Of a stretch of 64,000 nt of DNA, positions 2,788 to 58,036 are shown piece after piece. The first letter of the stretch is position 1. Each line of letters begins with the position of its first letter. The notes beneath the pieces are model-generated. The model did no database searches. It was not told the origin of the DNA and was given only the letters and a program-made list of their open reading frames with translations. Position numbers and translations under genes: made by a program. Origin of the DNA: a bacterium (GTDB lineage Bacteria; 4484-113; JAGGVC01); the NCBI GenBank assembly GCA_039961635.1, contig JABRWB010000008.1:30158-94157 (forward strand), written 5' to 3'.

Positions 2788-2955
2788 CAAGGTATCAGTC
2801 TGTTTATATCTTCGAGGAAAGTTATGTCCAAATTACCTACACTTATCGCTAAGTGTATGTAATTAGTTCCGGCCTGTATCAACCATTGCGCCCAGCGTGT
2901 TATTATTCCTGCTCCCGGCGGGGGAAGGACGCCGATTCTCAATGCAAGGAGTCAT

Positions 2956-3433
2956 CATGTCCGACGAAAAAACATATACAGAAAAGGAATGGCACAAGAA
3001 GACGGCGGTCGATGCGTTCAACGCGTGCTGGGATTTGATAGACAAGAAAGACCGCACGCTTCAGGAAGACCTCGAAATGATCCGCCGCGCGCACGTCTCC
3101 CGCTGGCACTGGCAGCACGTCGGCGAGCCGAAGAACTTCGCGGCGGGAGACTGGCAGTGCAGCCGGGTGTACGCGATCCTGGGACGCGGCGAGCCAGCGT
3201 TGATTTACGCCAAGGAGAGCCTGCGCGAATGCGAGGAGGGCGGCGTGACCGATTTCAACCTGCCGTTCGCGCACGAGGCATGCGCGCGCGCGTACGCGGC
3301 GCTCGGCGACAGGGCGAATTTCGAAAAGCACTACGCGGAGGCGAAGCGGCTGGGCGAAACTATCGAGGAAAAGGACGATCGGGATTATTTCTTTCAGGAT
3401 CTCGAAGCCGGAAACTGGTTCGGAATGAAGTAG
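2956..3433 (+). CDS. Hypothetical protein (159 aa)
   Basis: AAGGAG RBS followed by ATG at 2956 (MSDEKTYTEKEW...). The upstream part of track ORF 2897-3433 lacks an RBS. Ordinary amino-acid composition. Its stop codon (3431-3433) abuts the stop of the convergent kinase gene (3434-3436). Confidence 0.55.
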
Positions 3434-44003: not shown

Positions 44004-44034
44004 GGGCGTGCGGCGCACGCCCGGTGAGTGGTAG

Positions 44035-44094: not shown

Positions 44095-44868
44095 ATGAGA
44101 AAAAAACTGCTTGCGGCGAACTGGAAGCTGTACAAGACCTTCGAGGAGGCGGACGGCTACGCAGCGAAACTCAAAGCCGCATTCGGCGGAACGCAGCCAG
44201 AAATAGACGTCGCGGTTTGCGCGAGCTTTCCGTACCTGCGCGATTTGATTCGCGCGTTCGAGGGCACCGGCATCGCCGTCGGCGCGCAGAACGTGTCGGA
44301 ATACGTCGAGGGCGCGTATACCGGCGAGGTCGGGGTGCGCCAGCTTTCGGGCTACGGGCTGCGCTACGCGATACTCGGCCACAGCGAGCGGCGAAACGTC
44401 TTCGGGGAAAGCGACAAGCTGATACGGAAGAAGCTTGAGCTTGTCCTTGCGGAAAGCGAGCTTTGCCCGATCCTGTGCGTCGGCGAGCCCTTGGAAGTGC
44501 GCGAGGGGGGGGAGGCGGCGGCTTTCGTCGCGAACCAGCTTGACGGCGCGCTGTCGGGGATTCATCGGGAGCGGGTGCGGCGGCTGGTGATCGCCTACGA
44601 GCCGATATGGGCAATCGGCACCGGAGTCAACGCGAAGCCGGAGGACGCGCAGGAGATGTGCGCGTGGGTGCGCACGGTGGCGTCGGATTTCCTGTCGGCG
44701 GAAGTCGCCGCGGAAATGCGCGTGCTTTACGGCGGGAGCATCAAGCCCGCAAACTGGGCGGCGATAGCCGCGGGCGCGGACGTGGACGGCGGACTTGTCG
44801 GGGGCGCGTCGCTGGACGCGGACGCGTTTTTCGAGCTGTACCGGATTACCGCGGGGCGTGTTGGATAG
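44095..44868 (+). CDS. tpiA: Triosephosphate isomerase
   Basis: AANWKL, ILGHSERR, AYEPIWAIGTG signature and catalytic Glu. 257 aa. Confidence 0.95.
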   Translation: MRKKLLAANWKLYKTFEEADGYAAKLKAAFGGTQPEIDVAVCASFPYLRDLIRAFEGTGIAVGAQNVSEYVEGAYTGEVGVRQLSGYGLRYAILGHSERRNVFGESDKLIRKKLELVLAESELCPILCVGEPLEVREGGEAAAFVANQLDGALSGIHRERVRRLVIAYEPIWAIGTGVNAKPEDAQEMCAWVRTVASDFLSAEVAAEMRVLYGGSIKPANWAAIAAGADVDGGLVGGASLDADAFFELYRITAGRVG

Positions 44869-44889: not shown

Positions 44890-45114
44890 TCACTTCGCCG
44901 CAGCCTGGTAAATCGCAGGGCGGTATCTGGGCTTCGGAATCCGTTTCCCCGACGCCTGCGCCGCTTCAATCCATGCGGATTTCGCGATAAGCACCTCGCG
45001 CAGAGCCTTCTCCGGCGTCGAGCCGAAGGCCGAGCAGAATTTGAGGTCCGGAATGTCCGCGACATAACATCCGTCCTCGTCACTGTAAAACACGTTGACG
45101 TGGTAATCTTTCAT
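44890..45114 (-). CDS. hicB: HicB-family antitoxin (type II TA)
   Basis: 74 aa. YSDEDGCYVADIPDLKFCSAFGSTPEKALREV fits the HicB/UPF0150 RNase-H-like fold. Overlaps the upstream hicA by 4 nt. Confidence 0.7.
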   Translation of the reverse strand: MKDYHVNVFYSDEDGCYVADIPDLKFCSAFGSTPEKALREVLIAKSAWIEAAQASGKRIPKPRYRPAIYQAAAK

Positions 45115-45368
45115 TTGCCGTCACCCACATCCAGCCCATAACGCTCAATAATCGAGACAAGCTGCCTGAGCTGGTACGTCTTTATTTTACCCCCGAAGTT
45201 CTGGATATTGATCAGTTCGTTAACACCCGCGCGCCGAAAAATATGGTGGCTTCCCTTTTTTCGGGCAAGGCGAAATCCTAGAGCATCGAGCAGGGTTAAG
45301 ACGTCTGCAAAGGAGACGTTGCCTGAACCGCGCAACACCTGTTCCAGCAATTTTCGTATCTTGGTCAT
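45111..45368 (-). CDS. hicA: HicA-family mRNA interferase toxin
   Basis: 85 aa. LGFRLARKKGSHHIFRR (the KGSHH motif of HicA dsRBD-like toxins). Confidence 0.75.
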   Translation of the reverse strand: MTKIRKLLEQVLRGSGNVSFADVLTLLDALGFRLARKKGSHHIFRRAGVNELINIQNFGGKIKTYQLRQLVSIIERYGLDVGDGK

Positions 45369-45751
45369 TAAGCGTCAAAATACGGGTAACCGAGTCATTC
45401 TATCTTAATTTAACTTAGATATTTCTAATAAGCGCCTCTACCCGCCGTAATTCACGATCGTGAACTGGATCGGGAAGGGCGCGCTGCCGTGCCAGAACGG
45501 AGCCGGCTCCTGATTTAGCCGCGCCGTGGACATAAAAGCAAATTGAGCCGGCGGCATGTCGCTCGCGAAAAAAACGCGGCGTCGGCTTTTCCAGTCCCCG
45601 TCCCGCTTGCCCCGATTGTCACAAAGATTTTTCCGCCGCAGGCTGTCCATTTCCGGCAATACTTGACAAATGTTGGCTATAATAAGCGATGGAGGCGTAA
45701 CCGAGCCAAGCCCGTTTTCCGGGCGGGGCGCCCGGCCTCCCGGAGGTTATT

Positions 45752-47119
45752 TTGAGCGATACTTTGAATTACCTTGATTCGGCGGAAGGGCGAAGTGAAT
45801 CGTACATGCGCAGGCGGCGGTGCGCGCTGTACGACGCGTACTTTTCGGGCAGGCCGTACGAGAACGAGCGGGAGTGGCGCAGCCTGCTCGGGTACTCGGC
45901 GGAAGTTTCCGCACCCGCGATTGTAGTCAACTATCCGCGGCTGGTCGTGGAGCGTCCGGCGCACTTCGCGTTCGACCGGGTCGCGGGCGTGGAGGCGGCT
46001 GACCCCGCGGCGCAGGAATTCGTCGAGCGGGCAATCGCCGGACTGGAGATCGGCGGTATAAGCTCGCTGGATGCGCTTTTAAGCGAAGCGGCGATAGAGG
46101 CGTCCATCAAGGGTGACGCGCTGCTTGTGTTCGATCCGTCGGGATTGGTGAGCGCGGGAAATGCAGGCGAGACGCCGGCCCTCCCTGTTTCAGTCATCCC
46201 CGCGGAGGATTACACGCTTGAATGCGATCCCCACGACGCGTCGAAAATTGCGTTCATCCGCATCGAGTACCGGATCTCCGATGGGAACGGGAAAGAAACC
46301 CGGCACAGGCGGGAGCTGCATCCCGACCGGATTCTTGAATTCATCGGCGACGCGCCGAAGGGCCGCAGGATTTGGTTCGGCGGAAACGCGGCGCACCTTG
46401 CGGGCGCCGCGCCGGACGAGCCGAAGGAATGGCGGCTCGTCTCCGCCGCGAAAAATCCGCTGGGCGAGATACCCGCGGTCGTCGTGCGCAACCGGCCGCG
46501 CGTCGGGCGGGCTTACGGCGAAAGCGACTTCGCGGATCTGCTGACGATATTCGACGACATCAACTGGAAATACTCGCAGAGGTCGCGCAACATCAGCCGG
46601 ACGATGAACGCGATTCTGAAATCAGTGAACGGCCGGATTCTGAACGACGTGATTTCCGAAAACGGCGTGCTGTCGGTGATCGGCGAGGGCGCGGAAGTCG
46701 GGTATCTCATCAACGACGCGGACATGAGGGAGATCTCGACGCATATCGCGGAGCTGCGCCGGGCGCTTTTCGAAATAAGCGGGGTGACGGTGCTGGACGC
46801 GGAGAAGCTTTCCGGATACGGCGCGCTGTCCGGATTCGCGCTGTCCGTTTTGTATGAGCCATTGATCGCGCTTGCGGAGAAAAAGCGCCGGACGATCGGC
46901 GGCGCGGTGGAGCGGTTCCTGTCGAAGATCGTCCGGGCGGGATGGAAGCTGGGATTGATCGAAACCGAGCCGGAAAGCTTCGGCGTGCGGATCAAGTACG
47001 GCGCGATGTTCCGCGAAAGCGAGCGCGAGCTTGCGGAAAAGCAGTCGAGATTGCTCGCCGCGATCGACGCGGGACTTTTGACGAAGGAGCAGGCGGGGAA
47101 GGCAATGGAAACAAGTTGA
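45752..47119 (+). CDS. Phage portal-like protein
   Basis: TTG start 8 nt after GGAGG. 455 aa. Size and position immediately upstream of the capsid gene fit a portal; the family was not verified. Confidence 0.5.
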   Translation: MSDTLNYLDSAEGRSESYMRRRRCALYDAYFSGRPYENEREWRSLLGYSAEVSAPAIVVNYPRLVVERPAHFAFDRVAGVEAADPAAQEFVERAIAGLEIGGISSLDALLSEAAIEASIKGDALLVFDPSGLVSAGNAGETPALPVSVIPAEDYTLECDPHDASKIAFIRIEYRISDGNGKETRHRRELHPDRILEFIGDAPKGRRIWFGGNAAHLAGAAPDEPKEWRLVSAAKNPLGEIPAVVVRNRPRVGRAYGESDFADLLTIFDDINWKYSQRSRNISRTMNAILKSVNGRILNDVISENGVLSVIGEGAEVGYLINDADMREISTHIAELRRALFEISGVTVLDAEKLSGYGALSGFALSVLYEPLIALAEKKRRTIGGAVERFLSKIVRAGWKLGLIETEPESFGVRIKYGAMFRESERELAEKQSRLLAAIDAGLLTKEQAGKAMETS

Positions 47120-47213
47120 CAGTTGGACAGTTGACAGTTCGACAGTTAACTGCGGTTGTTCGACAAAATACACCGGACATGCGAAGCAACTGTCAACTGT
47201 TAACTGTCAACTC
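47115..47213. repeat. Iteron-like inverted-repeat array between the portal and capsid genes
   Basis: Left arm GTTGACAGTTGGACAGTTGACAGTTCGACAGTTAACTG (4 x ACAGTTN). A 26-nt spacer follows. The right arm CAACTGTCAACTGTTAACTGTCAACTC is the inverted complement. Confidence 0.7.
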
Positions 47214-47286
47214 TGAACTTGATTACAGATGCAATCCGGATTATCAACCGGAAAAAGAAACTATGTAATTTTAAGGAGGATCGTGT

Positions 47287-48198
47287 ATGGCACTGACTTT
47301 GGCGGACGCCGCGAAGCTTGAAACGGACGCGCTTAAAAAGGGGGTGATCGAAACCTTCGGCGAGTTCTCGCCTGTCTTGGAAGACCTTCCCTTCATCGAG
47401 GTGCAGGGCAACAGCTACAAGTACGCGATCGAATCGTCGCTGCCCGCGGTGGAATTCCGCGAGGTGAATTCGGCGTACACCGAGAGCGCGGGCGAGTTCA
47501 CGCAGGCGAGCGAACCGCTCGTCATATTCGGCGGCGTCGTGGACGTGGACCGCTACCTGCAGCAAACGCGCGGCAGCATAAACGACCAGCGCGCGATCCA
47601 GACGCGGATGAAGGTGAAGAGCCTGGCGCTCGCGTTCACGCGCAACTTTTTCGAGGGCGACACCACGGCCGACCCGAATTCGTTCGAAGGGCTTTCGAAA
47701 AGGCTGACCGGCGCGCAGGTGATAACCGCGGACGACGGCGGGCACAACGGCGACGACCTTTCCATGGATTACATGGACATGCTGATAGACGCTGTGTGGG
47801 GCGGGCCGGACGTGATTTACATGAGCCGCCACAACAGGCGCAAACTGACGCAGATCGCGCGCGAAACGAACTTCCTCGAAGTGTACCTGGACGACTTCGG
47901 CAGGCAGGTGACGCGCTACGACGGAATTCCGGTGAAGATAATCGGGAAGGACGAGACGAACGAGGAAATCCTGGGCAACGACGAAACCGAGGGCGAAAAC
48001 GACGAAACGAGCAGCATCTACGCCGTCAAATACGGAGCGGACGAGTTCGTGTGCGGGATTACGAACGGCGGAATCCAGGTGGACGACCTGGGGCTTATCC
48101 CCTCCCCCCCCGTGTACCGCACGCTTATCGAGTTCTACTGCGGACTGGCGGTGTTCCATCCGCAGGCCGCGGCTAGGCTGAAGGGGATAAACAAGTAA
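47287..48198 (+). CDS. Phage major capsid-like protein
   Basis: TAAGGAGGATCGTGT-ATG. 303 aa starting MALTLADAAKLETDALKKGVIE, with an acidic patch DETNEEILGNDETEGENDETS. Position and expression signal fit a major capsid protein; the fold was not verified. Confidence 0.55.
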   Translation: MALTLADAAKLETDALKKGVIETFGEFSPVLEDLPFIEVQGNSYKYAIESSLPAVEFREVNSAYTESAGEFTQASEPLVIFGGVVDVDRYLQQTRGSINDQRAIQTRMKVKSLALAFTRNFFEGDTTADPNSFEGLSKRLTGAQVITADDGGHNGDDLSMDYMDMLIDAVWGGPDVIYMSRHNRRKLTQIARETNFLEVYLDDFGRQVTRYDGIPVKIIGKDETNEEILGNDETEGENDETSSIYAVKYGADEFVCGITNGGIQVDDLGLIPSPPVYRTLIEFYCGLAVFHPQAAARLKGINK

Positions 48199-48572
48199 TG
48201 GTCAACCCCGGTTACCTGATGCTCGGCGGGAAAGTGCTTTTCGACGATCCGTACGCGCTCGCGCTCCGCGGAAGCGGCGCGGGCGCGCCCGCCGGGCGCG
48301 GGTTAAGGACGAGGCGGATGGCGGCGCGGCGCGCTGTTGATTTATCTTCCCGCAAAAGCAATGCAACAGGCGAAACCGCGGACGCGGAACCCGATTTGCC
48401 GCCTTTGAAAAAGCTGTTCGTGGCAAGGACGCGCAACCGGCGCTACACGGGCGAAATTTGCGGCGTCTGGTTTTCGGACGGGGAAGCGCTGTGCGCCAAA
48501 GAAGAGGCCGAGGCGCTTTTGGAAGCGGGATGCGAAGTTACGGTATGCGGAGGAACAGATGACTTTGAGTGA
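48198..48572 (+). CDS. Phage-cluster hypothetical protein (124 aa)
   Basis: ATG overlaps the capsid gene stop (TAATG). Continues the gene run. Confidence 0.45.
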   Translation: MVNPGYLMLGGKVLFDDPYALALRGSGAGAPAGRGLRTRRMAARRAVDLSSRKSNATGETADAEPDLPPLKKLFVARTRNRRYTGEICGVWFSDGEALCAKEEAEALLEAGCEVTVCGGTDDFE

Positions 48573-49143
48573 ATACATTCGGCTGGCATGCGGCGACGCT
48601 ACGGAGGGCGAGCAGGCGCTGTCGGACGGCGATATCGCGGACGTGCTTGCGGGCGCGGTGCTTTCTCCGGTCAGCCGGAATTTCATCCGCGCGATCCTGG
48701 AAAGCGGCGCGCGGGCGAGCGTCCTGAACCGCGCGGGCTGGGTGGAGCTGCCGCTTTCCGCGCTAAGTCCCGACCACAGGAAGTGGGGTTGCGGCCTGGG
48801 CGGCTGGCTGGACGGGCTGACCGACGTTTACATCGGCGGCGGGTTGCATCCGCTCGGCGAAAACGAAAGCATAAACAACCTGACCGGAATCGTGACGCTT
48901 TTGGCGGATCCGGGGGAGGGGGCGGCGGTCAGCGTGCGCACCTATCTTGTAGATCTGCCGCGGGCGGTCCACGACGCGCTGATGCTTATCGCGGGAAGCG
49001 AATCGCGGCTCGCGATCAAAGCGGGCGCGGGCGGTGCGGACGTGGACTTGTCCGGGCTCGCGGAGGCGCTGCGCAGGCAGGCGCGCGAGGTGATGGGCGC
49101 GGCGCCGGTCGAAATCGAGCAGCGGGGGGACTACCCGCACTAG
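48559..49143 (+). CDS. Phage-cluster hypothetical protein (194 aa; head-tail connector/adaptor-size)
   Basis: ATG start overlaps the upstream gene by 14 nt. Ordinary composition. Confidence 0.45.
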   Translation: MTLSEYIRLACGDATEGEQALSDGDIADVLAGAVLSPVSRNFIRAILESGARASVLNRAGWVELPLSALSPDHRKWGCGLGGWLDGLTDVYIGGGLHPLGENESINNLTGIVTLLADPGEGAAVSVRTYLVDLPRAVHDALMLIAGSESRLAIKAGAGGADVDLSGLAEALRRQAREVMGAAPVEIEQRGDYPH

Positions 49144-49151
49144 GAGCTGAA

Positions 49152-49550
49152 ATGCCGGACGGAACCAGACTAAAAGCGTTGTTCGAGCGGATGATACGCG
49201 TGCTCGGCGGAAGCGCGGAGGAAGTCTTCATCCGCACGTACGAGGAAACGGGCGGGCATCCCGAAAGCGGGATGCCGCCGGCGCGGATCGCGACCGATGT
49301 TCCGATTTCGCCGCGGCCGATTGTTCTGGCTGCGGATCAACAATTTTACGTTTTCAAAACGCGCGAAATCGAATCGGTGCGCATCGAGGCGGGCGACGTG
49401 AAAATCGTGATGGACGCGGATGAAGGCGTCGAGGCGGAAACGATCCTGCATTTCCGCGGCGCGGACTGGCGCGTGTATCGCGTCGACGCACCCGTGTTAT
49501 TCGGAAGCGTGCAGGTGAAGATCGCGTACGCAAGGAAGGTGCAGGGATGA
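49152..49550 (+). CDS. Phage-cluster hypothetical protein (132 aa)
   Basis: GGAGCTGAA-ATG at 49152 (MPDGTRLKALFERM...). The track ORF 48588-49550 is a 5' over-extension in the same frame. Confidence 0.5.
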   Translation: MPDGTRLKALFERMIRVLGGSAEEVFIRTYEETGGHPESGMPPARIATDVPISPRPIVLAADQQFYVFKTREIESVRIEAGDVKIVMDADEGVEAETILHFRGADWRVYRVDAPVLFGSVQVKIAYARKVQG

Positions 49551-49993
49551 GGGACGCGATTACATCTCTTAACGCGTGGATTTCGGAAAAGCTGCCGGAC
49601 GTGGCGCACAGCTTCGCGCCCGGCTCGCCTGTGAGCTTTCCATGCGTCGTCGTCGTGCCGCGGACGTTGGGAGGAAAAACGAAGCCCGCGGGCGGGCCGG
49701 CCGCGCTGGCGACTGTCACGTTCCAGGCGGACTGCTGGGCGGACGGCGGCGACGCTTTGGCCGCGCGGACAATCGCGCAGCGGATACTCGCGGCGCTGCT
49801 TGGCGACACCGACCGCGGCGCGCGGATACCGCGACACCGGTGGATTTACGGGGAGGGGGAGCCGGTGCGGGCGGAGATGCGCGACGAGATGGTTGTGACG
49901 GACGCGCGGATAGCAGAAATTCCGATACGAGACGCGCCGGAGCTGCGGCTGTGCCGCGCGATTTTCGATCTGCGGTTTGTTTTGACGGCTTAA
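49547..49993 (+). CDS. Phage-cluster hypothetical protein (148 aa; tail-completion-size)
   Basis: ATGA overlap with the upstream gene. Confidence 0.45.
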   Translation: MRDAITSLNAWISEKLPDVAHSFAPGSPVSFPCVVVVPRTLGGKTKPAGGPAALATVTFQADCWADGGDALAARTIAQRILAALLGDTDRGARIPRHRWIYGEGEPVRAEMRDEMVVTDARIAEIPIRDAPELRLCRAIFDLRFVLTA

Positions 49994-50026
49994 CTAGAAA
50001 GTTAAGTCCATTTAAGGAGGATTTTA

Positions 50027-50841
50027 TGACGAACAACGTAAGCGCGCTGACGGTGGGGTCGGCGGAGATTTACATAAACGGCGAAAAGTGCGGCTGGGCG
50101 ACGGATGTCGAAATCGAAAAGCGCGTCGAGGTTCTGCGCCATGAAAGCAATGTGGGGCTTGAATTCGCGACCGACCACGTCGTGCCGCTGCGTCGAAGCT
50201 TCATCGTGCGAGGGCGCTTCGGCGAAGTGGACCCGCCCACGATCAACAACGCGCTGGGGCTGTCCGGGCTTTCCGCGCAGGAGACCGCGAGCGCGCAGGG
50301 GATGACCGAGTACGCGAGGTTGTATCCCGGCAGGTGGTACACGCTGCGGTTCCCGTCCACCGGAACGAGCATCGTTTTGAAAACGGCGGACGGTCAGACG
50401 ACGTTCGTGAAGAACACGGATTACGAAGTATCCGCCGCGCTCGACGCGATCAAGTTGAAGGACAATTCGGCGATTGCTCCGGGAGAGCTGCTTTTGCTCA
50501 GCTATTCGTATCAGCGCCCGCCGTACAGCGAGGTCGCGCTTTCCGCTCCTGGATTCGCTCGGCCCGTGCATCTCGTTTTGGTCCACCGCTATCCGGACGG
50601 CGCGAGCTTTTTCGAGCTGACGCTGCCGCGCGTGCTTCTCGAAGCCGACGTGTCGCTCGCGTTCGACGAAAAGGACTGGATCGGAATCGAGTTTTCCGGC
50701 GAGTGCCTGCCCGACGAAAGCGACGCGGCCGCGCCTTTCGGACGCCAGAAATTCTTCGGCCCGATATTCGAGAACATGGGGCTTGCCGCGGGCGACGTGG
50801 AGAGCAACCCTTACGTGCCGGAAATCGGCCCGACGTACTAG
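50027..50841 (+). CDS. Phage major tail (tube)-like protein
   Basis: TAAGGAGGATTTT-ATG, the same strong RBS as the capsid gene. 271 aa. Located between head-completion ORFs and chaperone/tape-measure ORFs. Confidence 0.5.
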
Positions 50842-50850
50842 GAGGACGAA

Positions 50851-51240
50851 ATGAACGAAACGGTTTTGGAAATCGAGCGCGACGTGTTTTTGGGCGAAGG
50901 GACGCCTCTCGTCCTGCGCGACGGGCGCAAACTGACCGTGCCGCGGTGGAGCGCGCGAAAAGCGCTGTCTCTGGGACGCAAGATCGCGGAGGCCGTGTCA
51001 ATCGCATCGCAGGCGGAGGGCGGCGGCGGCGGAAAGGCGATTCTGTTTTCGCTGCCGCTAATCGGCGAGGTTGTGTGCGAAACGCTTGGCGAGGATGAAT
51101 CGTTCCTGGACACGATCACGAAAGACGACCTTGCCGAAATCGCGCTTGCGATCGTGAAGCAGGAATTTATGTCCGAGCATTTCCTTTCGCTCTCAAAAAA
51201 AGCCGCGGCGCTCCTTCGCAGCTCTCGATCGGCGGATTGA
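50851..51240 (+). CDS. Phage-cluster protein, tail-assembly-chaperone position (129 aa)
   Basis: GGAGGACGAA-ATG. Followed by an overlapping small ORF, as in chaperone G/GT pairs of siphoviruses. Confidence 0.45.
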   Translation: MNETVLEIERDVFLGEGTPLVLRDGRKLTVPRWSARKALSLGRKIAEAVSIASQAEGGGGGKAILFSLPLIGEVVCETLGEDESFLDTITKDDLAEIALAIVKQEFMSEHFLSLSKKAAALLRSSRSAD

Positions 51241-51494
51241 TCGATCTCATCGCGTCCGAGTACGGATGGACGGCTGCGGAAATTCTCGACGCGCAGACGA
51301 TGCGCGGCCTGGAAATTCTCGCGGCGCATATCCGGGCGCGGAAAGCGGAGGAGCGCGTGGTGCACGCCGTCGCGTTCGGAGCGGACAGGAAGGAAGCGGA
51401 GCGGGCGATAAAGCGCATCCGCGAAAAGCTGATTGAAGAAATTTGCGGAAAAAACGAGGAGCCGAAATTCGATCCCGCGTTTTTTTCGGCGTGA
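51237..51494 (+). CDS. Phage-cluster small protein (85 aa), second chaperone-position ORF
   Basis: Overlaps the previous ORF by 4 nt in a different frame. Confidence 0.4.
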   Translation: MIDLIASEYGWTAAEILDAQTMRGLEILAAHIRARKAEERVVHAVAFGADRKEAERAIKRIREKLIEEICGKNEEPKFDPAFFSA

Positions 51495-51503
51495 GGCAAA
51501 AAG

Positions 51504-52130
51504 ATGAGCGATTTTGAAATTGGCGGCGAAATGGACGACGCGATGGCGGAGCTTGCCGCGCAGTTCGCGAAGCTGGCGGAGGGGACGCGCGACGTGCTGG
51601 ATGCGTTCTCCAAATTCGCCGGGATTGATGCGGGCGGCGCGCGGAGCGATTCGCCGTTCGGAAGCTGGGAGCGGCTGGGCGACGAAGTATTGGGCAGCGT
51701 GCGCGGAATCGGAAACGCGCTTTGGCGCGGCGGATTCGACGATGCGGGGCGCAGGTTCCTGCGCAACTTCGCGGGAAAAATCGGCGACGACGTTTCCGGC
51801 GCGGTGAGTGAAGCGCTGGGCGGCTCGTTTTTCGCAGATTTGTTCGGCGGACTTTTGGGAGAGCTGGTGCGCGGCCTGGGAGGGCTTTTCGGAAAGGACA
51901 AGAAAGCGAAGCTTCCGCCCGCAAAGCTGCCGGAGCTATTCAGTCCGCCGGAAATGATGAGCGCGCCGCTTTCGCTTTTGCCGTCGTCCGCGTTTCTTTC
52001 CGGGCGTGCGCCTAGGGCGACGATAAACGTGACGGTGAACGGAATCGTCGGCTCGCCGCGGGACGTCGCGGACGAAATAACGCGCATCGTAACGCGTACG
52101 CTTGTCGATCTGACGAGGAGGGGCGCGTAA
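51504..52130 (+). CDS. Short Gly-rich tape-measure-like protein (208 aa)
   Basis: Gly/Leu-rich central region (GGSFFADLFGGLLGELVRGLGGLFGKD). Position directly after the chaperone-position ORFs. Confidence 0.4.
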   Translation: MSDFEIGGEMDDAMAELAAQFAKLAEGTRDVLDAFSKFAGIDAGGARSDSPFGSWERLGDEVLGSVRGIGNALWRGGFDDAGRRFLRNFAGKIGDDVSGAVSEALGGSFFADLFGGLLGELVRGLGGLFGKDKKAKLPPAKLPELFSPPEMMSAPLSLLPSSAFLSGRAPRATINVTVNGIVGSPRDVADEITRIVTRTLVDLTRRGA

Positions 52131-52576
52131 TGCTCAAATTTTGGACAACGGGCGCGGACGCCGATACGTTCGTGCTGTCGAGCGTGAAATCGCGCGTCGA
52201 GCACTCGCCGTGCGCGGCGATTGTTTTGGACCGCAGCGGAATTCCCCACAGGATCGCGGGCGAATATCAGCCGCGGCCGGTGCGCATCGAAATCGAATTT
52301 CCCGAAAACGCGCTTTCGCTTGAAAACACCCAGCCGATACGGTTCGACAATCTCCTTATCACGCTGTTCGAAACCAACCAGCCGGTCGTATTTTTTGAAA
52401 GCACGCGCGCCAGGGCGTACCAGGGATTTATCGAAGAGCTCGATCCGCGCATCGCGGCGAGGCGCGACCGGCTTGCGGGCGAAGACGATTTCGTCCGCGT
52501 CGTTTTCTGGCTGGAACGTTTCGGCACGTATTCGGACTGGACCAATCTGGCGAGCGTGGAATGGGAGGACGAGTGA
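52130..52576 (+). CDS. Phage-cluster protein (148 aa; distal-tail-size)
   Basis: ATGA overlap on both sides. Confidence 0.45.
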   Translation: MLKFWTTGADADTFVLSSVKSRVEHSPCAAIVLDRSGIPHRIAGEYQPRPVRIEIEFPENALSLENTQPIRFDNLLITLFETNQPVVFFESTRARAYQGFIEELDPRIAARRDRLAGEDDFVRVVFWLERFGTYSDWTNLASVEWEDE

Positions 52577-54504
52577 TGAGCTTCACCGAAACCGCGCGCG
52601 CGGCGCTCGCCGCGAGAAACAAACGCATCGTTTTTCGCGCGCGCCTCAAAACATCGCATCCCGAATCGAACGAGTGGAGGGAATATCCACTTGCGGAAAA
52701 CGGATTCAGGCTCGTGCGCGAAAGCGGTCTTCCCGCGCGGCTGGAGCTGGATCCGGTTCCGCCGGACGGCGGTTTCGGAGCGGAAAGCGATCCATCCGAG
52801 CGCTGGCAGCTCTTCGCGCAGTGCGAGCTGTGGTGCGACGTGTACACCGGCCCGGCGGAATACGAGTCGCAGCGGCTGTTCGACGGAATTCTGACCGAGA
52901 TAACGCCGCGGGATTACGGGCTGCCCGCGGTCGCGCTGGACAGGCTGCACATTTTGTCGCGCACCGTGTGCGCGGTCGCGATGGAAGCGGAGCAAATCCC
53001 GATTGTTGACGGCGCGCCGCTTGCGCGTGCGGAAGAATTTGACGACCACACTTTCGGATTGGTAATGGCGGAGACGCCGGACGGATTTTCGGCCGAGGGT
53101 GAAAGACGCGCATGGCAGCCGGGCGACATCCGCGTTTTTGATTCCGCGGGGGGGGAGCTTCCGCCTGGAAGTTACGCCGTTTATCCGGACAGCGGAGTCG
53201 TACGGTTTCATTCGATACCGGAAGACGATGTTTTCATTTCCGGCGTGCGCTGCTACATCGAGGGAACGAACGATGTTTCAAATGTCCTGCTTTCGGCGCT
53301 GACGTATCCGAAGGAAAAAGGCGGGCCGGGGCTGTCCGTCGCGCAACTCGATCTGCCGGCGCTTGGACTCGACCTGAACCGCGTAGAGTGGGCGGAAGCG
53401 GACGGGAGCGTCGCGGATTTTATTTCGCACCTGCGCGGCGCGCTGCCAGGAAACGTTTCGCTTTCGTACGACAGCGATTCCGGCAGGTTCAAACTGCGCG
53501 CAATCGAGCAGAGCGAAACGCCGGATCTGACGCTTTTGAATCCGGTTTCTGTATCCGGGCCGCGGGACGCGCACGAGGTATACACGCGCGTGATAATCCG
53601 CGGCGAAAATCCCGCGCCCGCGCCACTCTCGGACGATGCGGAAATAACCGACTTGCAGGAAGGAGTCGGCGAGACATTCAAGTGGGAAGGCAACAAGAAA
53701 ACGTTCGACGCGGGAACGATCGCGCTTGTATCGGACGGCGGCGCGAACACGGGATTCGGGCGGCACAACCTTCCGGGCGAGCCGTACGACTGGCGGGATT
53801 TCGCGCTGCTCGACCTCGGCGCTCCGGAGGGGGGAGGGTTCTTCCGGATTTCGCGCGTCGACGTGGTTGCGGCGAACAGCGCGAATCCGAATTCGCAAAG
53901 CGGCGCGAATTTGATTTTCCTTTACGGCGTCGAGCTTTTGGGAAGCAGGGACGGAGTCGGGTTCGTACGCATAGCACCGGGCGCGAAGTGTTTTCTCAAG
54001 GCGCTCGAAGTGCGCACGTTCGATTCGCTTTCGTTCGACCGGTTCCGGTATCTCAAGGTGCGCGTCAAACCGGCCAAAGACGGACTGTCCAACCAGAGCG
54101 ATCCGGGGCTTGCGCTGAACGAAATCCGAATTTGGGGCGCTCTCGAATACGAAATCGAGTCGTGCGTCCAGGACGACGATCCCGATGCGCCGTTTTACTT
54201 CCCCGCCCTGCTGGAGAAAACATCGGCGATCGGACATCTGACATACATCGAGGACGCGGGAAACGCGCTTGACCGGTACGCGGCCAAGGCGCGCGCGGAC
54301 GCGCTGCTGTCGGAGTTCATCCGCGCGTTCCAAGCTGTCGAGTATTCATGCATCGTCGATCCGACGGCGGACGTGGATATGACCGCGGCGGTGGAAGACG
54401 CGGCGACGGGAATAGAAATGAGTTTTCTTATCCACCGCGTCGTAATCGAAGGCACGCGGACCGTCGTATCCGGCGTGGATTATCTATCCGCGCCGCTTTC
54501 TTAG
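52576..54504 (+). CDS. Phage tail protein (642 aa; tail fibre/host-specificity-size)
   Basis: ATG at 52576 overlaps the upstream stop (MSFTETARAALAARNKRIVF...). Confidence 0.5.
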   Translation: MSFTETARAALAARNKRIVFRARLKTSHPESNEWREYPLAENGFRLVRESGLPARLELDPVPPDGGFGAESDPSERWQLFAQCELWCDVYTGPAEYESQRLFDGILTEITPRDYGLPAVALDRLHILSRTVCAVAMEAEQIPIVDGAPLARAEEFDDHTFGLVMAETPDGFSAEGERRAWQPGDIRVFDSAGGELPPGSYAVYPDSGVVRFHSIPEDDVFISGVRCYIEGTNDVSNVLLSALTYPKEKGGPGLSVAQLDLPALGLDLNRVEWAEADGSVADFISHLRGALPGNVSLSYDSDSGRFKLRAIEQSETPDLTLLNPVSVSGPRDAHEVYTRVIIRGENPAPAPLSDDAEITDLQEGVGETFKWEGNKKTFDAGTIALVSDGGANTGFGRHNLPGEPYDWRDFALLDLGAPEGGGFFRISRVDVVAANSANPNSQSGANLIFLYGVELLGSRDGVGFVRIAPGAKCFLKALEVRTFDSLSFDRFRYLKVRVKPAKDGLSNQSDPGLALNEIRIWGALEYEIESCVQDDDPDAPFYFPALLEKTSAIGHLTYIEDAGNALDRYAAKARADALLSEFIRAFQAVEYSCIVDPTADVDMTAAVEDAATGIEMSFLIHRVVIEGTRTVVSGVDYLSAPLS

Positions 54505-54512
54505 GAGGACAG

Positions 54513-55913
54513 ATGGCGAAGCAAATCCGAAATCTCGCATCCGAAATCGACGCGCGTATCGCGCGCTCTTCCGCGCGGGGGAAACGCGGCGCTGTGCCGC
54601 ATCCGCCGTCCAACCGCGACTGGCGGGCCGAGCCCGCCGCCGACAATCCCGATCCGTCGTTCGATTTCGGCGTGCTTTCTCTCGGCGAATACGGCGACGA
54701 AACCGCGCTCTCCGGCGACGTGAAATTGAGCGAAGCCGCGGGAATCGAAATCGCGCGCATCGACGCCGACAACGCGCTTTCGGTCGGATTCACCGCGGAA
54801 GCGGCGGAAATGCTGGGATTGCTTGCGAGCGCAGGGCCGGGCAAACTCACGACGAACAACATAGGCGCTCCGCTCATTACCGTTTTCCGGCTGGGAACGC
54901 AGATTTACGCGCTGACCGCCGGGCAGATTTACCGCGTCGGCGAAACCACGGGAACGCTCGTCGCGATTCCCGGATGCGCGCCGGGGCCGGGCGAGCAGTT
55001 CACGTGCGCACGCGTATTTTCACCGTACGCTTTCATCGGTACGAGCACGAACAACCGGCCTTTCTTGAATATTTACAGGTTTGACGGCTCGGTTATAGCG
55101 GGGGAGCCCGTTCTTCCGGCAATCGGACAAAACTATTTCGTCGCGGGGATGACGGTATGCGCGGCTTCGCTTTACGCGCTCGCCGGCGACCTCGCCGCGC
55201 CGAATTACGGATGGACGGTGCTCCAGCGCGCCGCTCCCGGTGCTTGGGTTCAGCTTCTTCCCTGGCAGAGCGGCGAGCAGGCGGGGACTATCGGTGCATC
55301 GTCGGAGCTTCTCGTGACCGCCAACGCGGGCGCGGCGGGACGCGTTTACAGCGTGCAGCTCGGAGCCGGTCAGGCCGCGCCCATGCCCGTCGTGAACCTT
55401 CCCGGCGGCGCGCCTCTGGCAACCCTCGCGGGCGCGGAAATCGCGGTGCGCGGATGCGAAGCGTACGTTTCGGACGGCAGCAATATCTGGGGAATCGCGG
55501 ACACCCAGCCGAAGACGCACTCGGCAGCGCCTGTCAATCTTGCCGCGTTTTTCGCCGCGCCGTCGCGGTTCACGGCGCCCGCATCGTACATCGCGGTGGA
55601 CTCTACGGGCACGGCGTTCGGAATCGAGGCGGGCGGGCTTTTCGTTTTCGGTGTCGAGGTGCGCTTCCGGATTGATGCAACGCCGACGTTCGAGGACTGG
55701 TGCTACCTGCTCGGATACGACGGCGCGGAACTTATCGAAATCGCGGCGGGAAAGTCGCCGCCCGCGCCGTATTTCCGTCCGGTCGAGGTTGACCGCGGCG
55801 GGAGGATTCTGTTCGCCGCGCTCACCGCGGCGGACGCGCCGTATGTCTGGAAGATGCGGATGAGCCTGAAGCACATTCTCGGATTCGCGGGAAGAAAACT
55901 CGGAGTGAAATGA
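54513..55913 (+). CDS. Phage tail fibre/receptor-binding-like protein (466 aa), Gly/Ala-rich beta-structure
   Basis: TTAGGAGGACAG-ATG. Repetitive G/A-rich C-terminal half (VTANAGAAGRVYSVQLGAGQAAPMPVVNLPGGAPLATLAGAEI). Confidence 0.5.
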   Translation: MAKQIRNLASEIDARIARSSARGKRGAVPHPPSNRDWRAEPAADNPDPSFDFGVLSLGEYGDETALSGDVKLSEAAGIEIARIDADNALSVGFTAEAAEMLGLLASAGPGKLTTNNIGAPLITVFRLGTQIYALTAGQIYRVGETTGTLVAIPGCAPGPGEQFTCARVFSPYAFIGTSTNNRPFLNIYRFDGSVIAGEPVLPAIGQNYFVAGMTVCAASLYALAGDLAAPNYGWTVLQRAAPGAWVQLLPWQSGEQAGTIGASSELLVTANAGAAGRVYSVQLGAGQAAPMPVVNLPGGAPLATLAGAEIAVRGCEAYVSDGSNIWGIADTQPKTHSAAPVNLAAFFAAPSRFTAPASYIAVDSTGTAFGIEAGGLFVFGVEVRFRIDATPTFEDWCYLLGYDGAELIEIAAGKSPPAPYFRPVEVDRGGRILFAALTAADAPYVWKMRMSLKHILGFAGRKLGVK

Positions 55914-55949
55914 AATCGCGTCACGCGAGGCGTGACTAAGGAGAAATCA

Positions 55950-56222
55950 ATGAAGGTCTTGAAGTTTTTAAAAATCGGATTGAAGGAAGTCTGGCGGTAC
56001 GCGAAGTGGCTGTGGAAGCATTACGACGAGATCGCACCGGTGATCGAAATAATCCGCAGGCTCGCGGGCGAGGCCGAGGAGGCGTTCGACTCCGGCGAGG
56101 ACAAACGCCGGTTCGTCGCGCGGCGCGCCGCGCGGGCGCTCGCCTGCAGCGGGACGGCGAAGACGACGCGTAATCTTTTGATCGAGCGCGCGGCGGCGGA
56201 CGCGAAGGACGGTGCGCTGTGA
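55950..56222 (+). CDS. Small basic amphipathic protein (90 aa), holin/lysis-accessory position
   Basis: CTAAGGAGAAATCA-ATG. N-terminal amphipathic helix KVLKFLKIGLKEVWRYAKWLWKHY. Confidence 0.4.
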   Translation: MKVLKFLKIGLKEVWRYAKWLWKHYDEIAPVIEIIRRLAGEAEEAFDSGEDKRRFVARRAARALACSGTAKTTRNLLIERAAADAKDGAL

Positions 56223-56548
56223 ATCCGGAAATCACGACGACGGGAGCGATACTTGCGGGTCTCGCGGCGCTCGTCACCGCGGCAAGCGCCGGGATGGCGC
56301 GTGTAATCGCGGAGCTGCGCAAAATATCCAACGGCAACATGCAGCGGATCGACGAGAGGCTGGCCGAGATTGCGAAACTGGAGCGCGCGAATTTGATGAT
56401 GGGGGGGAAGATATTGCGGGCCATCCGCGGCCTCGGCGCGGACGGCAATTCGCCCCCCGTCAAAAAACGCGCGGGGCGCGCGGAGGGCGCGCCCGCTCTG
56501 ATTCCGCATCCATCTACAATGGAGGGCGATGGCAGGAATGACGGATAA
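56219..56548 (+). CDS. Small membrane protein (109 aa), holin-like
   Basis: One clear TM segment GAILAGLAALVTAASAGMARVIA followed by a charged tail. It sits immediately before the endolysin and overlaps it. Confidence 0.45.
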   Translation: MNPEITTTGAILAGLAALVTAASAGMARVIAELRKISNGNMQRIDERLAEIAKLERANLMMGGKILRAIRGLGADGNSPPVKKRAGRAEGAPALIPHPSTMEGDGRNDG

Positions 56549-57077
56549 ATTCGCATCGCCGCTGATGCGCGGAACGCTTGAGGTCGCGCGCGGATTCGTC
56601 GGCGTGCGCGAGGAGCCGCCCGGCTCCAACTGGGGCAAGGAAATCGAGCGGTTTCTCGCGAGCACCGGGATAAGGACGCCCGCGCCATGGTGCGCCGCGT
56701 TCGTATATTTCTGCGTTAAGAGCGCGGCGACGGAACTCCGCGTCGAAAATCCGTTCGCGAAAATCAAGCTCAAGGCGTACACGCCCGCGTGGCTCGAATG
56801 GGCGGATGCGCACGGGGAAAAGCTGACGGGTGGAAAGGCTGCGGCGCTTTCGCCGGCGGAATTCGCTCGCGAAATTCCGCCCGGAACGATATTCCTTCTT
56901 TATTATCCGAAGCTCAAGCGCGTCGGACACATTGGATTCATAGCGGGCGCGCCGGACGAATCGGGTTACATCCCGACTATCGAGGGAAACACGGATCTGC
57001 GCGGATCGCGCACAGGCGGCGGCGTAATTCTGCGAACGCGCAGACTGCGCGGGATATACAGGCTTGTCCGGTATTGA
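56529..57077 (+). CDS. CHAP-domain peptidoglycan hydrolase (endolysin)
   Basis: Catalytic Cys in APWCAAFVYFC, His in RVGHIGFIAG, and EGNTD as the polar third residue. 182 aa. Confidence 0.7.
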   Translation: MAGMTDKFASPLMRGTLEVARGFVGVREEPPGSNWGKEIERFLASTGIRTPAPWCAAFVYFCVKSAATELRVENPFAKIKLKAYTPAWLEWADAHGEKLTGGKAAALSPAEFAREIPPGTIFLLYYPKLKRVGHIGFIAGAPDESGYIPTIEGNTDLRGSRTGGGVILRTRRLRGIYRLVRY

Positions 57078-57106: not shown

Positions 57107-58036
57107 TTGCGATTGAGTCCTTCAATTAAAAAACGGATTTTGCTTTTATCCATCGCTTTCGCCATGCTGGCGGCGCTAACGGCCGCGGCGTTTTCGCAGA
57201 CGGGCGAGCGCATCCGCGGGCTTCTGCGCGATTTCAAATACGTCGCGAATGTCAGGTACGCTGAAGGCGGCGGAAAGTACCACCTTCTGGATGTATTCGC
57301 CCCTAGGATAGTCCCCGATTCGCCGATGCCCGTCGTCGTCTATATCCACGGCGGCGGATGGCGCAGGGGCGACAAGATAAGCGGCAAGACTTTTATGGCC
57401 GCGCTTGCCGAGGCCGGATTCATCGTCGTTTCGATCAACTACCGGCTGGCGCCTGACTCCAAATGGCCGGCGCAGATCGAGGATTGCAAGGCCGCGATAC
57501 GCTGGGTGCGGAAGAACATCGCGTCCTACGGCGGCGATCCGCGGCGCATCGGCGTGTTCGGGCTTTCCGCGGGAGGCCACCTCGCCGCGCTTCTGGGCAC
57601 ATCCGGCGGCGTTGCCGCACTAGAAGGCGATCTGGGAGAGCGCAACATGTCCAGCCGCGTAGACGCCGTGTGCGACTGGTTCGGGCCGTCCGATTTCACC
57701 ATCCTGGGCAGGCGCGCGAGCAAAGAACACAAAGGGATCCTGGAGGGCTTCCTGGGCGGAAAGCTTGATGAAGTCCGTGACAGGGCGATTGCGGCGTCGC
57801 CGGTCACGTACATAGACCGCGACGACCCGCCGTTTCTGATCATCCACGGCGATTCGGACCCGCTGGTTCCGGTGGAGCAGTCCGAGCGGCTGCACGGGCT
57901 GCTTGCGGAGGCGGGCGTCGAAAGCGAGCTAATCGTGGTACCGGGAGGAAAGCACGGAGATTTCCGCGGCACCCATCCGGACGGGCGCGAACTGACGGCG
58001 CTGATGGTCGAGTTTTTCGAAAAGCATCTGAAATAG
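57107..58036 (+). CDS. Secreted alpha/beta-hydrolase-fold esterase/lipase (HGGG-type carboxylesterase family)
   Basis: Signal peptide. Oxyanion-hole motif VVVYIHGGGW. Nucleophile elbow GLSAGGHLAA. IIHGDSDPLVP and HGDF supply the Asp and His of the triad. TTG start. Confidence 0.85.
   Translation: MRLSPSIKKRILLLSIAFAMLAALTAAAFSQTGERIRGLLRDFKYVANVRYAEGGGKYHLLDVFAPRIVPDSPMPVVVYIHGGGWRRGDKISGKTFMAALAEAGFIVVSINYRLAPDSKWPAQIEDCKAAIRWVRKNIASYGGDPRRIGVFGLSAGGHLAALLGTSGGVAALEGDLGERNMSSRVDAVCDWFGPSDFTILGRRASKEHKGILEGFLGGKLDEVRDRAIAASPVTYIDRDDPPFLIIHGDSDPLVPVEQSERLHGLLAEAGVESELIVVPGGKHGDFRGTHPDGRELTALMVEFFEKHLK

Follow-up and report, generated by a model that had tools for sequence, protein, structure and literature searches.

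The definition of gene transfer agents (GTAs) as viriforms names six features (Kogay et al. 2022, PMC9662315), and among the described agents the cluster of RcGTA includes the large terminase g2 (PMC9662315), while in FpGTA I of Faecalibacterium, which is podovirus-like, the small and large terminase genes (TerS and TerL) lie beside portal, scaffold and capsid (PMC12946183). FpGTA and PBSX of Bacillus subtilis come from outside the Alphaproteobacteria; both are particle operons of ~10-28 kb that derive from phages and are fixed in the chromosome (PMC12946183). Here we describe a cluster of 16 head, tail and lysis-like genes (positions 45752-57077) in a 64-kb stretch of a bacterial contig (JABRWB010000008.1 of assembly GCA_039961635.1), the whole of which is referred to as the window. 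The cluster is intact, recurs with the same gene order in other lineages, and is not accompanied by a terminase gene in any of them.

An earlier note on this DNA had proposed either a GTA-like locus or a prophage remnant. Of these, the GTA-like alternative is strongly favoured, as about 15 diverged genomes keep the cluster intact, in the same gene order and under purifying selection, although this support does not extend to DNA packaging. We consider it very probable that this is a functional particle locus maintained by its host. We also favour, with a probability of roughly 0.6, the full GTA-like reading of a domesticated tailed-phage particle kit served by an unlinked terminase. Particle production, the unlinked terminase, a DNA cargo and its delivery are all inferred from sequence, and the term GTA denotes a hypothesis about function.

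Conservation and selection in related clusters

Relatives were found through contigs carrying capsid homologues and through scans of species-representative genomes and metagenomes for the hub protein. The same collinear cluster was present in about 15 further lineages, and a terminase adjoins it in none. All carriers are metagenome assemblies, and their submitters labelled them Planctomycetales, Planctomycetia, Riflebacteria, Chloroflexi or plainly “bacterium”. In a neighbour-joining tree of capsids (computed without bootstrap support), those from terminase-less clusters all fall into a single clade, which has a clade of phages from IMG/VR as its sister.

Group A comprises the copy in the window (W), L006/L014, L015, L031 and L034, and is marked by a 642-aa hub that is followed by a gene for a protein of 464-469 aa; its lysin is a CHAP-type homologue of that in W, except in L031, where none is found at this position. 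Group B (L009, L012, L016, L017, L018, L020, L021, L024, L026, L027 and L036) differs by an additional gene of 91-183 aa that separates portal from capsid, by a 264-aa gene downstream of the hub, and by an Amidase_2 gene at the lysin position. A further locus, L037 (group C), resembles group B and has a tape-measure-position protein of 159 aa, which is 238 aa long in the variant L062.

In group A, comparison of W with L006, L031 and L034 showed identical gene order and intact open reading frames (ORFs) throughout, with synonymous divergence (dS) saturated at ~1-2 and a ratio of nonsynonymous to synonymous divergence (dN/dS) of 0.14-0.51. In group B, at least nine lineages carry the cluster at one fixed site, with a Ser/Thr kinase gene and a divergent response-regulator/HATPase_c_2 gene on the left and a PHP-domain gene, a 132-aa gene and the gene for the CCA-adding enzyme on the right, and this site is shared in spite of flanking-protein identities of only 50-92% between the genomes. 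For all 17 cluster genes of L009 and L017, dN/dS was 0.06-0.39 and dS 0.46-1.2, the corresponding values for the host flanks being 0.04-0.15 and 0.78-1.6. The identity of the cluster proteins follows that of the host flanks (Pearson r = 0.88 for 26 locus pairs), a value that describes the pattern and is not a test of significance, as the locus pairs are not independent. Conserved synteny, which had been suggested as a mark of domestication, is thus found in group B, with its fixed site and common flanks, and is not found in group A, to which the window itself belongs.

Conservation within the cluster is highest for the capsid, with 63-83% identity between W and the other terminase-less clusters and a dN/dS of 0.06 (L009 vs L017). 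It belongs to a very large phage family, in which its closest relatives, those with 63-83% identity, are all metagenomic.

These data bear on the possibility that the cluster is an inert prophage remnant, which has lost its left arm with the terminase as well as its early genes and is decaying in what is left. The absence of terminase, integrase, repressor and replication genes would fit such a remnant, as would a slightly atypical composition and the disrupted genes of two relatives, but none of the 16 ORFs of W is disrupted, gene order is the same in at least four lineages of group A at saturated dS with the dN/dS values given above, portal and lysin delimit the cluster in about 15 lineages, and group B is fixed in position and under purifying selection. 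The pseudogenisation that the earlier note had asked about in relatives is missing from most of them and may be present in L020 and L015. A sequence motif upstream of the portal and a frameshift site in the tail chaperone gene (see below) are conserved as well, features to be expected only of an operon that works. Since neutral decay would keep neither the genes nor their boundaries, nor the motif and the frameshift site, we consider an inert remnant largely refuted and very improbable.

Absence of packaging, mobility and replication genes

Within the cluster, no terminase, prohead protease, integrase, repressor or replication gene was detected, and none was found among 32 flanking ORFs of the window (most, not all, of those over ~200 aa) that were compared with Pfam or PHROGs; these flanking ORFs are housekeeping, signalling and transporter genes only. 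What had been noticed in the cluster from its letters alone holds for the scanned window ORFs too. The possibility that a terminase or integrase lies just outside the inspected region was also addressed by the precomputed Pfam calls of the Joint Genome Institute (JGI) for the 99.8-kb metagenome counterpart of the contig (3300028461, Ga0307753_100040), where no such gene is called at 37.3-58.2 kb or in the 5.6 kb to the right end of the contig.

For the terminase, the phages closest to W in capsid sequence supplied nine candidates, of which one was confirmed by PF03354 and PF20441 and the one from L042 turned out to be a portal. Neither the hidden Markov model (HMM) of these nearest-phage terminases nor phmmer gave a match in the six-frame translation of the whole window or in 350 kb of related loci, and tblastn with the terminase of phage Tripp gave no match in the cluster loci. 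The right flanks of group B hold host genes only, without a terminase. No transfer RNA (tRNA) gene occurs in the window, no att-like or flanking direct repeats were found at the cluster borders, and Rfam gave no match in the window.

A functional temperate prophage can be rejected, as integrase, repressor, replication module and terminase were not found in the scanned ORFs of the 64-kb window. The cluster also does not qualify as a phage satellite, be it a phage-inducible chromosomal island (PICI), a capsid-forming one (cf-PICI) or one of the P4-like type: it has no integrase, replication initiator or att site and encodes a full virion.

A related alternative is a helper-dependent, mobile “virion cassette”, for which a co-infecting phage would supply terminase, replication and excision. 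It would account for the four unrelated chromosomal contexts of the group A clusters and for the lack of a terminase of their own, and the HicAB toxin-antitoxin genes next to the copy in W could be seen in the same light. It is difficult to reconcile with the failure to find an integrase, excisionase, primase/replicase, att repeat or tRNA target, with the group B clusters staying at one locus and diverging together with its flanks, and with pattern scans of IMG/VR, in which no capsid, portal or hub of the cluster type was found. In addition, the gene set is the reverse of that of known satellites, which keep their mobility genes and usually borrow tails. A mobile cassette is in our view quite unlikely.

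Comparison with phages and known particle systems

Compared with W, the nearest phage capsids are those of Paenibacillus phage Tripp (54.6% identity) and of phages in IMG/VR (at most 51%), the range extending down to 45%. Like W, Tripp and the IMG/VR phages L043, L047, L048, L051 and L055 have an SPP1-type portal, a PF20911 capsid, a siphovirus tail module and a lysis cassette. They differ in that TerL (546-588 aa) is encoded directly upstream of the portal and that they possess a minor head protein of 290-326 aa (VG15/MuF-like) and a scaffold of ~200 aa, all of which are missing from the W cluster, and Tripp has an integrase and a repressor downstream, together with other early genes, which the W cluster also lacks. 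Their tape measures are 796-1019 aa long, whereas the proteins at this position have 159-238 aa in all related clusters, that of W being 4-5 times shorter than in the phages. Relative to these phages, the cluster family has lost the terminase and the minor head protein, and its scaffold is lost or shrunk. Apart from two 26% matches for the portal, the IMG/VR pattern scans returned nothing of the cluster type.

The likeness to RcGTA is one of layout: both are compact head-tail operons with a similar order of portal, capsid, connectors, tail tube, two chaperones, tape measure, Dit and hub, both lack integrase and replication genes, and vertical inheritance with co-divergence is found in both, here for group B. 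In RcGTA, g1 is a small terminase, g4 a prohead protease and g5 an HK97-type capsid, and the lysis genes are at another locus. The W cluster differs by having no terminase or protease, a PF20911-type capsid, and lysis-like genes inside the operon. RcGTA has a tape measure of 216 aa, as compared to 208 aa in W, and a small wall peptidase, g14, of 150 aa (PMC7296036). Membership in the RcGTA family (Rhodogtaviriformidae) was rejected, as the capsid family differs, protease and terminase are missing, and the hub is alike at the level of the fold only. Since no relationship at the sequence level was detected, an independent origin is indicated, and the likeness in layout and tape measure is convergent.

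In the earlier note it was held that GTAs keep exactly this subset of genes, often with the terminase elsewhere. This does not agree with the two described clusters compared here, as RcGTA g2 and the TerS and TerL of FpGTA are encoded within them (PMC9662315, PMC12946183). A possible precedent for particle genes that are unlinked from a head-tail-lysis cluster is the GTA VSH-1 of Brachyspira hyodysenteriae, for which a “divided genome” is named in the title of Stanton et al. 2009 (cited in PMC11841831); going by that title, its genes are split between loci. VSH-1 belongs to another host phylum and consists of other gene families. Whereas FpGTA encodes a terminase, the W cluster does not. PBSX has its own terminase, a further difference from W, and a contractile tail.

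Like the W cluster, cf-PICIs and tailocins are reduced phage-derived gene sets in bacterial chromosomes. The former retain an integrase, replication genes and a small terminase and depend on borrowed tails, and the latter have no capsid or portal. A tailocin was rejected for W, which has both a portal and a capsid, the latter under the strongest constraint of all its genes. A search of the literature for GTA-like elements in Planctomycetes returned nothing relevant.

The six features of the GTA definition are virion proteins of caudoviricete origin that build caudovirion-like particles, a cargo made up mostly of random host DNA, full endogenization, often at several loci, a head too small for the element's own genes, mainly vertical inheritance with co-diversification, and delivery of the cargo to other cells (PMC9662315). 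Of these, virion proteins of caudoviricete origin are evident from matches, in sequence or fold, of portal, capsid, head closure, tail completion, tail tube and hub. Full endogenization is indicated by the lack of mobility genes, repeats and tRNA genes, by housekeeping genes on both sides and by the fixed locus of group B. Vertical co-diversification is seen in group B, with the correlation given above and similar dS in cluster and flanks, while group A occupies four contexts. For a head too small for its own genes there is an indirect hint, the scaffold being lost or shrunk compared with the phage relatives. The functional need for a terminase, which is no part of the formal definition, is not provided for in the window, in the JGI calls or in the 350 kb of related loci.

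Observations that weigh against a GTA-like agent

Several observations speak against the GTA-like reading. The terminase is absent wherever it was searched for, in the window, up to the right end of the contig and in the related loci, while the GTA head clusters used for comparison (RcGTA and FpGTA) all include TerL; a particle that lacks a terminase could not be a GTA. In group A, the chromosomal contexts of the four loci are unrelated to one another, and because these differ, vertical inheritance is shown for group B only; either there has been heavy rearrangement in these genomes or the cluster has changed its place by some route. A gene between portal and capsid is present in groups B and C, and none in group A, so that without a scaffold gene the assembly of the group A capsid is left without an explanation. 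There are also individual defects: frameshifts in the hub gene (2927-4857) and the next gene (4854-5647) of L020, a stop in the tail tube gene of L015 (1217-2035), and the missing lysin gene of L031 (13859 onward). Those in L020 and L015 could be errors of the metagenome-assembled genomes or real decay, and the absence in L031 is either such an error or the beginning of decay or modular loss. Finally, in tetranucleotide use no other 11-kb segment of the window stands out as much as the cluster (~1.9 standard deviations), whose composition is mildly different, with a G+C content (GC) of 0.619 vs 0.592.

The lack of a linked terminase in any of the about 15 loci raises the possibility that packaging falls outside the element's own programme. 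The locus would then encode a domesticated particle that does not transfer host DNA: an empty or protein-loaded device, bacteriocin-like or serving adhesion or defence, or one that is filled by the terminase of an invading phage. A lectin-like domain in the hub and the wall peptidase would suit such a device. Against it stand the strong constraint on the capsid and the retention of portal, adaptor and head-closure genes, as known tail-only bacteriocins have dropped their head genes. In tailed phages, portal, adaptor and head closure serve the packaging and retention of DNA, and tails normally join filled heads only. We therefore regard a particle without transfer of host DNA as possible though doubtful.

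Should the carriers possess no terminase at all, the clusters could represent an ancient, fixed “virion kit”, either filled by phage terminases (as a decoy or for hitch-hiking) or forming a DNA-free tailed particle. This is unlikely; if true, it would be a domesticated phage element of a kind not described so far.

Gene content of the cluster

The 16 ORFs of the cluster are listed in Table 1. As had been noticed at first sight, they are tightly packed on the + strand and run from a portal to a CHAP-type peptidase, which is now supported by coordinates, junctions and family matches. Portal and capsid genes are separated by a spacer of 167 nt, the junctions that follow are -1, -14, +8, -4, +32, +9, -4 and +9 nt up to the tape-measure-position gene and -1, -1, +8, +18, -4 and -20 nt from there on, and eight of them are overlaps of 1-20 nt.

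Table 1. Genes and other sequence features of the cluster, with coordinates in the window.
Feature	Position	Strand	Basis or remark
Bipartite promoter-like motif CTTGACAAATGTTGGCTATAAT	45662-45683	+	TTGACA, 9 nt, TATAAT; 69 nt before portal start
Portal, 455 aa	45752-47119	+	PF05133 SPP1_portal 8.9e-15; phrog_64 8.6e-23
Hairpin, ~100 nt, with GACAGTT repeats, in portal-capsid spacer	47112-47222	+	RNA fold
Major capsid protein, 303 aa, epsilon15/BPP-1 type	47287-48198	+	phrog_212 3.9e-83; PF20911 5e-20
124-aa protein	48198-48572	+	Head decoration/cement possible, from position only; without family match
194-aa protein, putative head-tail adaptor	48559-49143	+	Role suggested by position
Head closure protein (Hc1-like), 132 aa	49152-49550	+	phrog_161 3.7e-5
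Tail completion/terminator protein (gp17-like), 148 aa	49547-49993	+	PF11367 1.7e-5
Major tail tube protein, 271 aa	50026-50841	+	phrog_807 2.2e-16; NF052337 tail_tube_6XGR 4.8e-18; PF27730 weak
Tail assembly chaperone pair	50851-51494	+	G, 50851-51240 (129 aa); T extension, 51237-51494, -1 frame
Tape-measure-position protein, 208 aa	51504-52130	+	Position; Gly-rich hydrophobic stretch GGSFFADLFGGLLGELVRGLGGLFG
Dit-position protein, 148 aa	52130-52576	+	Role suggested by position
Baseplate hub/tail-tip protein, 642 aa	52576-54504	+	AlphaFold model, pLDDT 77.5; Foldseek
466-aa putative fibre/receptor-binding protein	54513-55913	+	Group A only; putative role
Amphipathic helical protein, 96 aa (or 90 aa)	55932-56222	+	First gene of putative lysis cassette
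Holin-/spanin-like protein, 109 aa	56219-56548	+	N-terminal transmembrane helix and coiled coil; putative role
CHAP-type peptidoglycan peptidase, 182 aa	56529-57077	+	PF05257 2.7e-4; phrog_9589 4e-9

The first ORF, in which a portal had been suspected, is indeed a portal of the SPP1 type. Its start codon is TTG, with GGAGG 7 nt upstream, an alternative ATG being at 45806, and the W protein is 57-59% identical to other group A portals and 35-39% to those of L009 and L012 in group B. The ORF previously described as capsid-like is the major capsid protein, and its assignment to the epsilon15/BPP-1 type is supported by further matches to NF045672 MCP_gp7_epsi_15 (9.5e-74) and to 3j4u (BPP-1; 5e-9) in the Protein Data Bank (PDB). 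The observation that capsid and tail tube genes share the same ribosome-binding site was reproduced: TAAGGAGGAT is present exactly twice in the 64 kb, at 47272 and 50013, in each case just upstream of the respective ATG.

The hairpin in the portal-capsid spacer has a folding energy of -59 kcal/mol (z = -5.2 vs shuffled sequences) and is unique to W, the spacers of other group A loci being 49-83 nt long. A role in processing or stability is conceivable, as is the insertion of a palindrome.

Among the connector genes, homologues of the 124-aa protein occupy the same position in groups A and B, and the Hc1-like protein is conserved in both. The putative adaptor is kept in all groups, with 23-59% identity, and had no match in Pfam, PHROG, NCBIfam or PDB, a sequence-profile search included. 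The PF11367 match of the tail completion protein, with 25.4 bits, lies just above the cut-off of 24.5. Sequence-profile searches of the PDB gave nothing significant for the hub, portal, Dit-position and adaptor-position proteins.

In the tail region, a slippery heptamer A AAA AAG (51196-51202) lies in frame near the end of the first chaperone ORF. The second chaperone ORF is in the -1 frame, open from 51099, and matches a tail assembly chaperone family (phrog_33493, 2e-3). The heptamer AAAAAAG and the following ORF in the -1 frame are conserved in W, L006 and L031 (group A). A frameshift that joins two tail assembly chaperones (G and GT) is classical in long-tailed phages, and by this rule the chaperone gene of the cluster is probably read with a -1 frameshift.

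The 208-aa ORF follows the two chaperone ORFs and precedes the Dit-position ORF and the hub. As it had no family match in Pfam, PHROG or NCBIfam, its role as tape measure is deduced from this position and from its Gly-rich hydrophobic stretch; the earlier remark that the protein in the tape-measure position has only 208 aa is correct. By rule of thumb an alpha-helical tape measure spans ~1.5 angstroms per residue, so that one of 208 aa would correspond to a tail of ~30 nm. The Dit-position protein is conserved in all groups, and no significant family or PDB match was found for it.

For the hub, Foldseek searches with the predicted structure matched T5 pb3 (7zqp_b, 7e-8), the hub of Mu/MuSo2 (3cdd), VgrG and the RcGTA chain 6tba_7A (3e-5), and in BFVD siphovirus tail proteins with scores down to 1e-17. 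The modelled fold resembles the baseplate hubs of siphoviruses, myoviruses and contractile injection systems, and contains an inserted domain that is predicted to bind sugars and is similar to CBM32/discoidin domains (CBM32 modules 4a41/2w1u, ~1e-5). Its sequence matched none of 50,697 phage records, the IMG/VR pattern scan yielded no confirmed relative, and in a set of 1.84 billion clustered proteins its family accounts for only 139 representatives. Its nearest relative outside the clusters, with 25% identity, is an 887-aa tail protein of L033 (ERZ27247828 k141_1140392), a phage-like contig that also encodes DnaB and RecD-like helicases and may represent the phage lineage behind the tail tip.

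The 466-aa protein that follows has 37-46% identity to the products of the genes at the same position in L006 and L031, the 264-aa gene of group B being unrelated. No family match was obtained for it, and a structure model from the single sequence was unusable (pLDDT 36.8).

In the putative lysis cassette, the 96-aa protein, for which no transmembrane segment is predicted, has homologues in L006 and L031, and its position is taken by a similar small protein in group B. A transmembrane segment was found by hydropathy at approximately residues 8-30 of the 109-aa protein (W, L006, L031, L009 and L012). The CHAP match (PF05257) of the last gene, with 21.8 bits, is under the Pfam cut-off of 26 bits, and the protein matches the endolysin families phrog_9589, phrog_21825 and phrog_21357; an endolysin and a wall peptidase carried on the virion are both conceivable.

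A conserved motif upstream of the portal gene

A bipartite motif, TTGnCn-N9-11-TATAAT, was found upstream of the portal gene in 11 loci, four from group A (W, L006, L031, L034) and seven from group B (L009, L012, L017, L018, L026, L027, L036), between which divergence is saturated. In group B its version is invariant, TGCTATAATGTAAA, and the motif of W is the only exact copy in its window. A scan for canonical sigma-70 promoters gave nothing significant, and as a spacing of 9-11 nt is too short for such promoters, a promoter role is putative; the motif may be an unusual promoter or the site of a regulator. Its presence in front of the portal in both groups suggests that a transcription unit with the portal as its first gene is ancestral and not the product of a truncation.

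In the left flank of group B, the divergent response-regulator/HATPase_c_2 gene always precedes the cluster (L009, L012, L017, L018, L026, L027, L036). Farther upstream lie the Ser/Thr kinase gene and, where the flank reaches that far (L009, L012 and partly L036), a pair of genes for an extracytoplasmic function (ECF) sigma factor and its anti-sigma factor. These kinase, response-regulator and sigma genes are candidate regulators of the operon.

Genomic setting

The window around the cluster is ordinary chromosome, with genes for MreB, SppA, histidine kinases, ABC transporters, Nramp, NAPRTase, YbeY and HU. The best matches of this MreB, at 85-92% identity, come from metagenome-assembled genomes, and those from named taxa (Firmicutes) reach only about 60%. 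The neighbours are those named before, tpiA (44095-44868) and HicB/HicA (44890-45368, - strand) on the left and a BD-FAE esterase (57107-58036) on the right. The HicB/HicA pair is found beside the cluster in the W genome only and lies outside the conserved element.

Two large proteins with PKD repeats are encoded on either side of the region, at 37273-40170 (- strand) and 58128-60704 (+ strand). The former gene is part of an island of sharply lower GC (0.46 vs ~0.60), which suggests a separate horizontal acquisition. A small gene at 2440-2787 has a weak match to TfoX_N, a competence regulator domain, in the JGI precomputed Pfam calls, and could be relevant if DNA from the particles enters cells by the competence machinery, as it does with RcGTA.

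The window is matched at 100% identity by independent Logan assemblies of the same organism, of which three stop at 56118-56123, at a GC-rich palindrome in the 96-aa gene, and two begin at 44020. These ends are probably an artefact of assembly or coverage, although they could reflect strain variation.

Proposed mode of action and implications

For the GTA-like reading, we propose the following course of events. The cluster would be transcribed as a single operon from the conserved promoter-like motif upstream of the portal, and the strong, identical Shine-Dalgarno sites would raise the output of capsid and tail tube proteins. Heads with the epsilon15/BPP-1-type capsid would assemble on the portal and be joined to a very short, non-contractile tail by the connectors of 194, 132 and 148 aa, the tail being built with G/GT chaperones made by -1 frameshifting and a tape measure of ~200 aa, and ending in a tip of Dit-position protein, lectin-bearing hub and 466-aa fibre-like protein. 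The particles would be released by the 109-aa single-pass membrane protein and the CHAP peptidase, unless the latter travels in the tail, like g14 of RcGTA (PMC7296036). An element of this kind would be unable to replicate, integrate or excise and would be inherited with the chromosome. A terminase from another locus would package DNA, which is the weakest link of the proposal, and host DNA would reach other cells in the particles.

To our knowledge, each known case of a GTA-like element is a separate domestication. Very few such elements are known outside the Alphaproteobacteria (PMC12946183), and the cluster family would contribute one more independent origin, in uncultivated bacteria of which little is known. 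The clusters were not turned up by scans of viral databases, and automated tools could mistake them for defective prophages. The absence of a linked terminase sets them apart from RcGTA and FpGTA and raises the question of how the particle is filled. With RcGTA they have in common the loss of mobility genes, a very short tape measure and a reduced scaffold, and this trend would make the cluster family a natural replicate for asking which steps in the domestication of phages repeat themselves.

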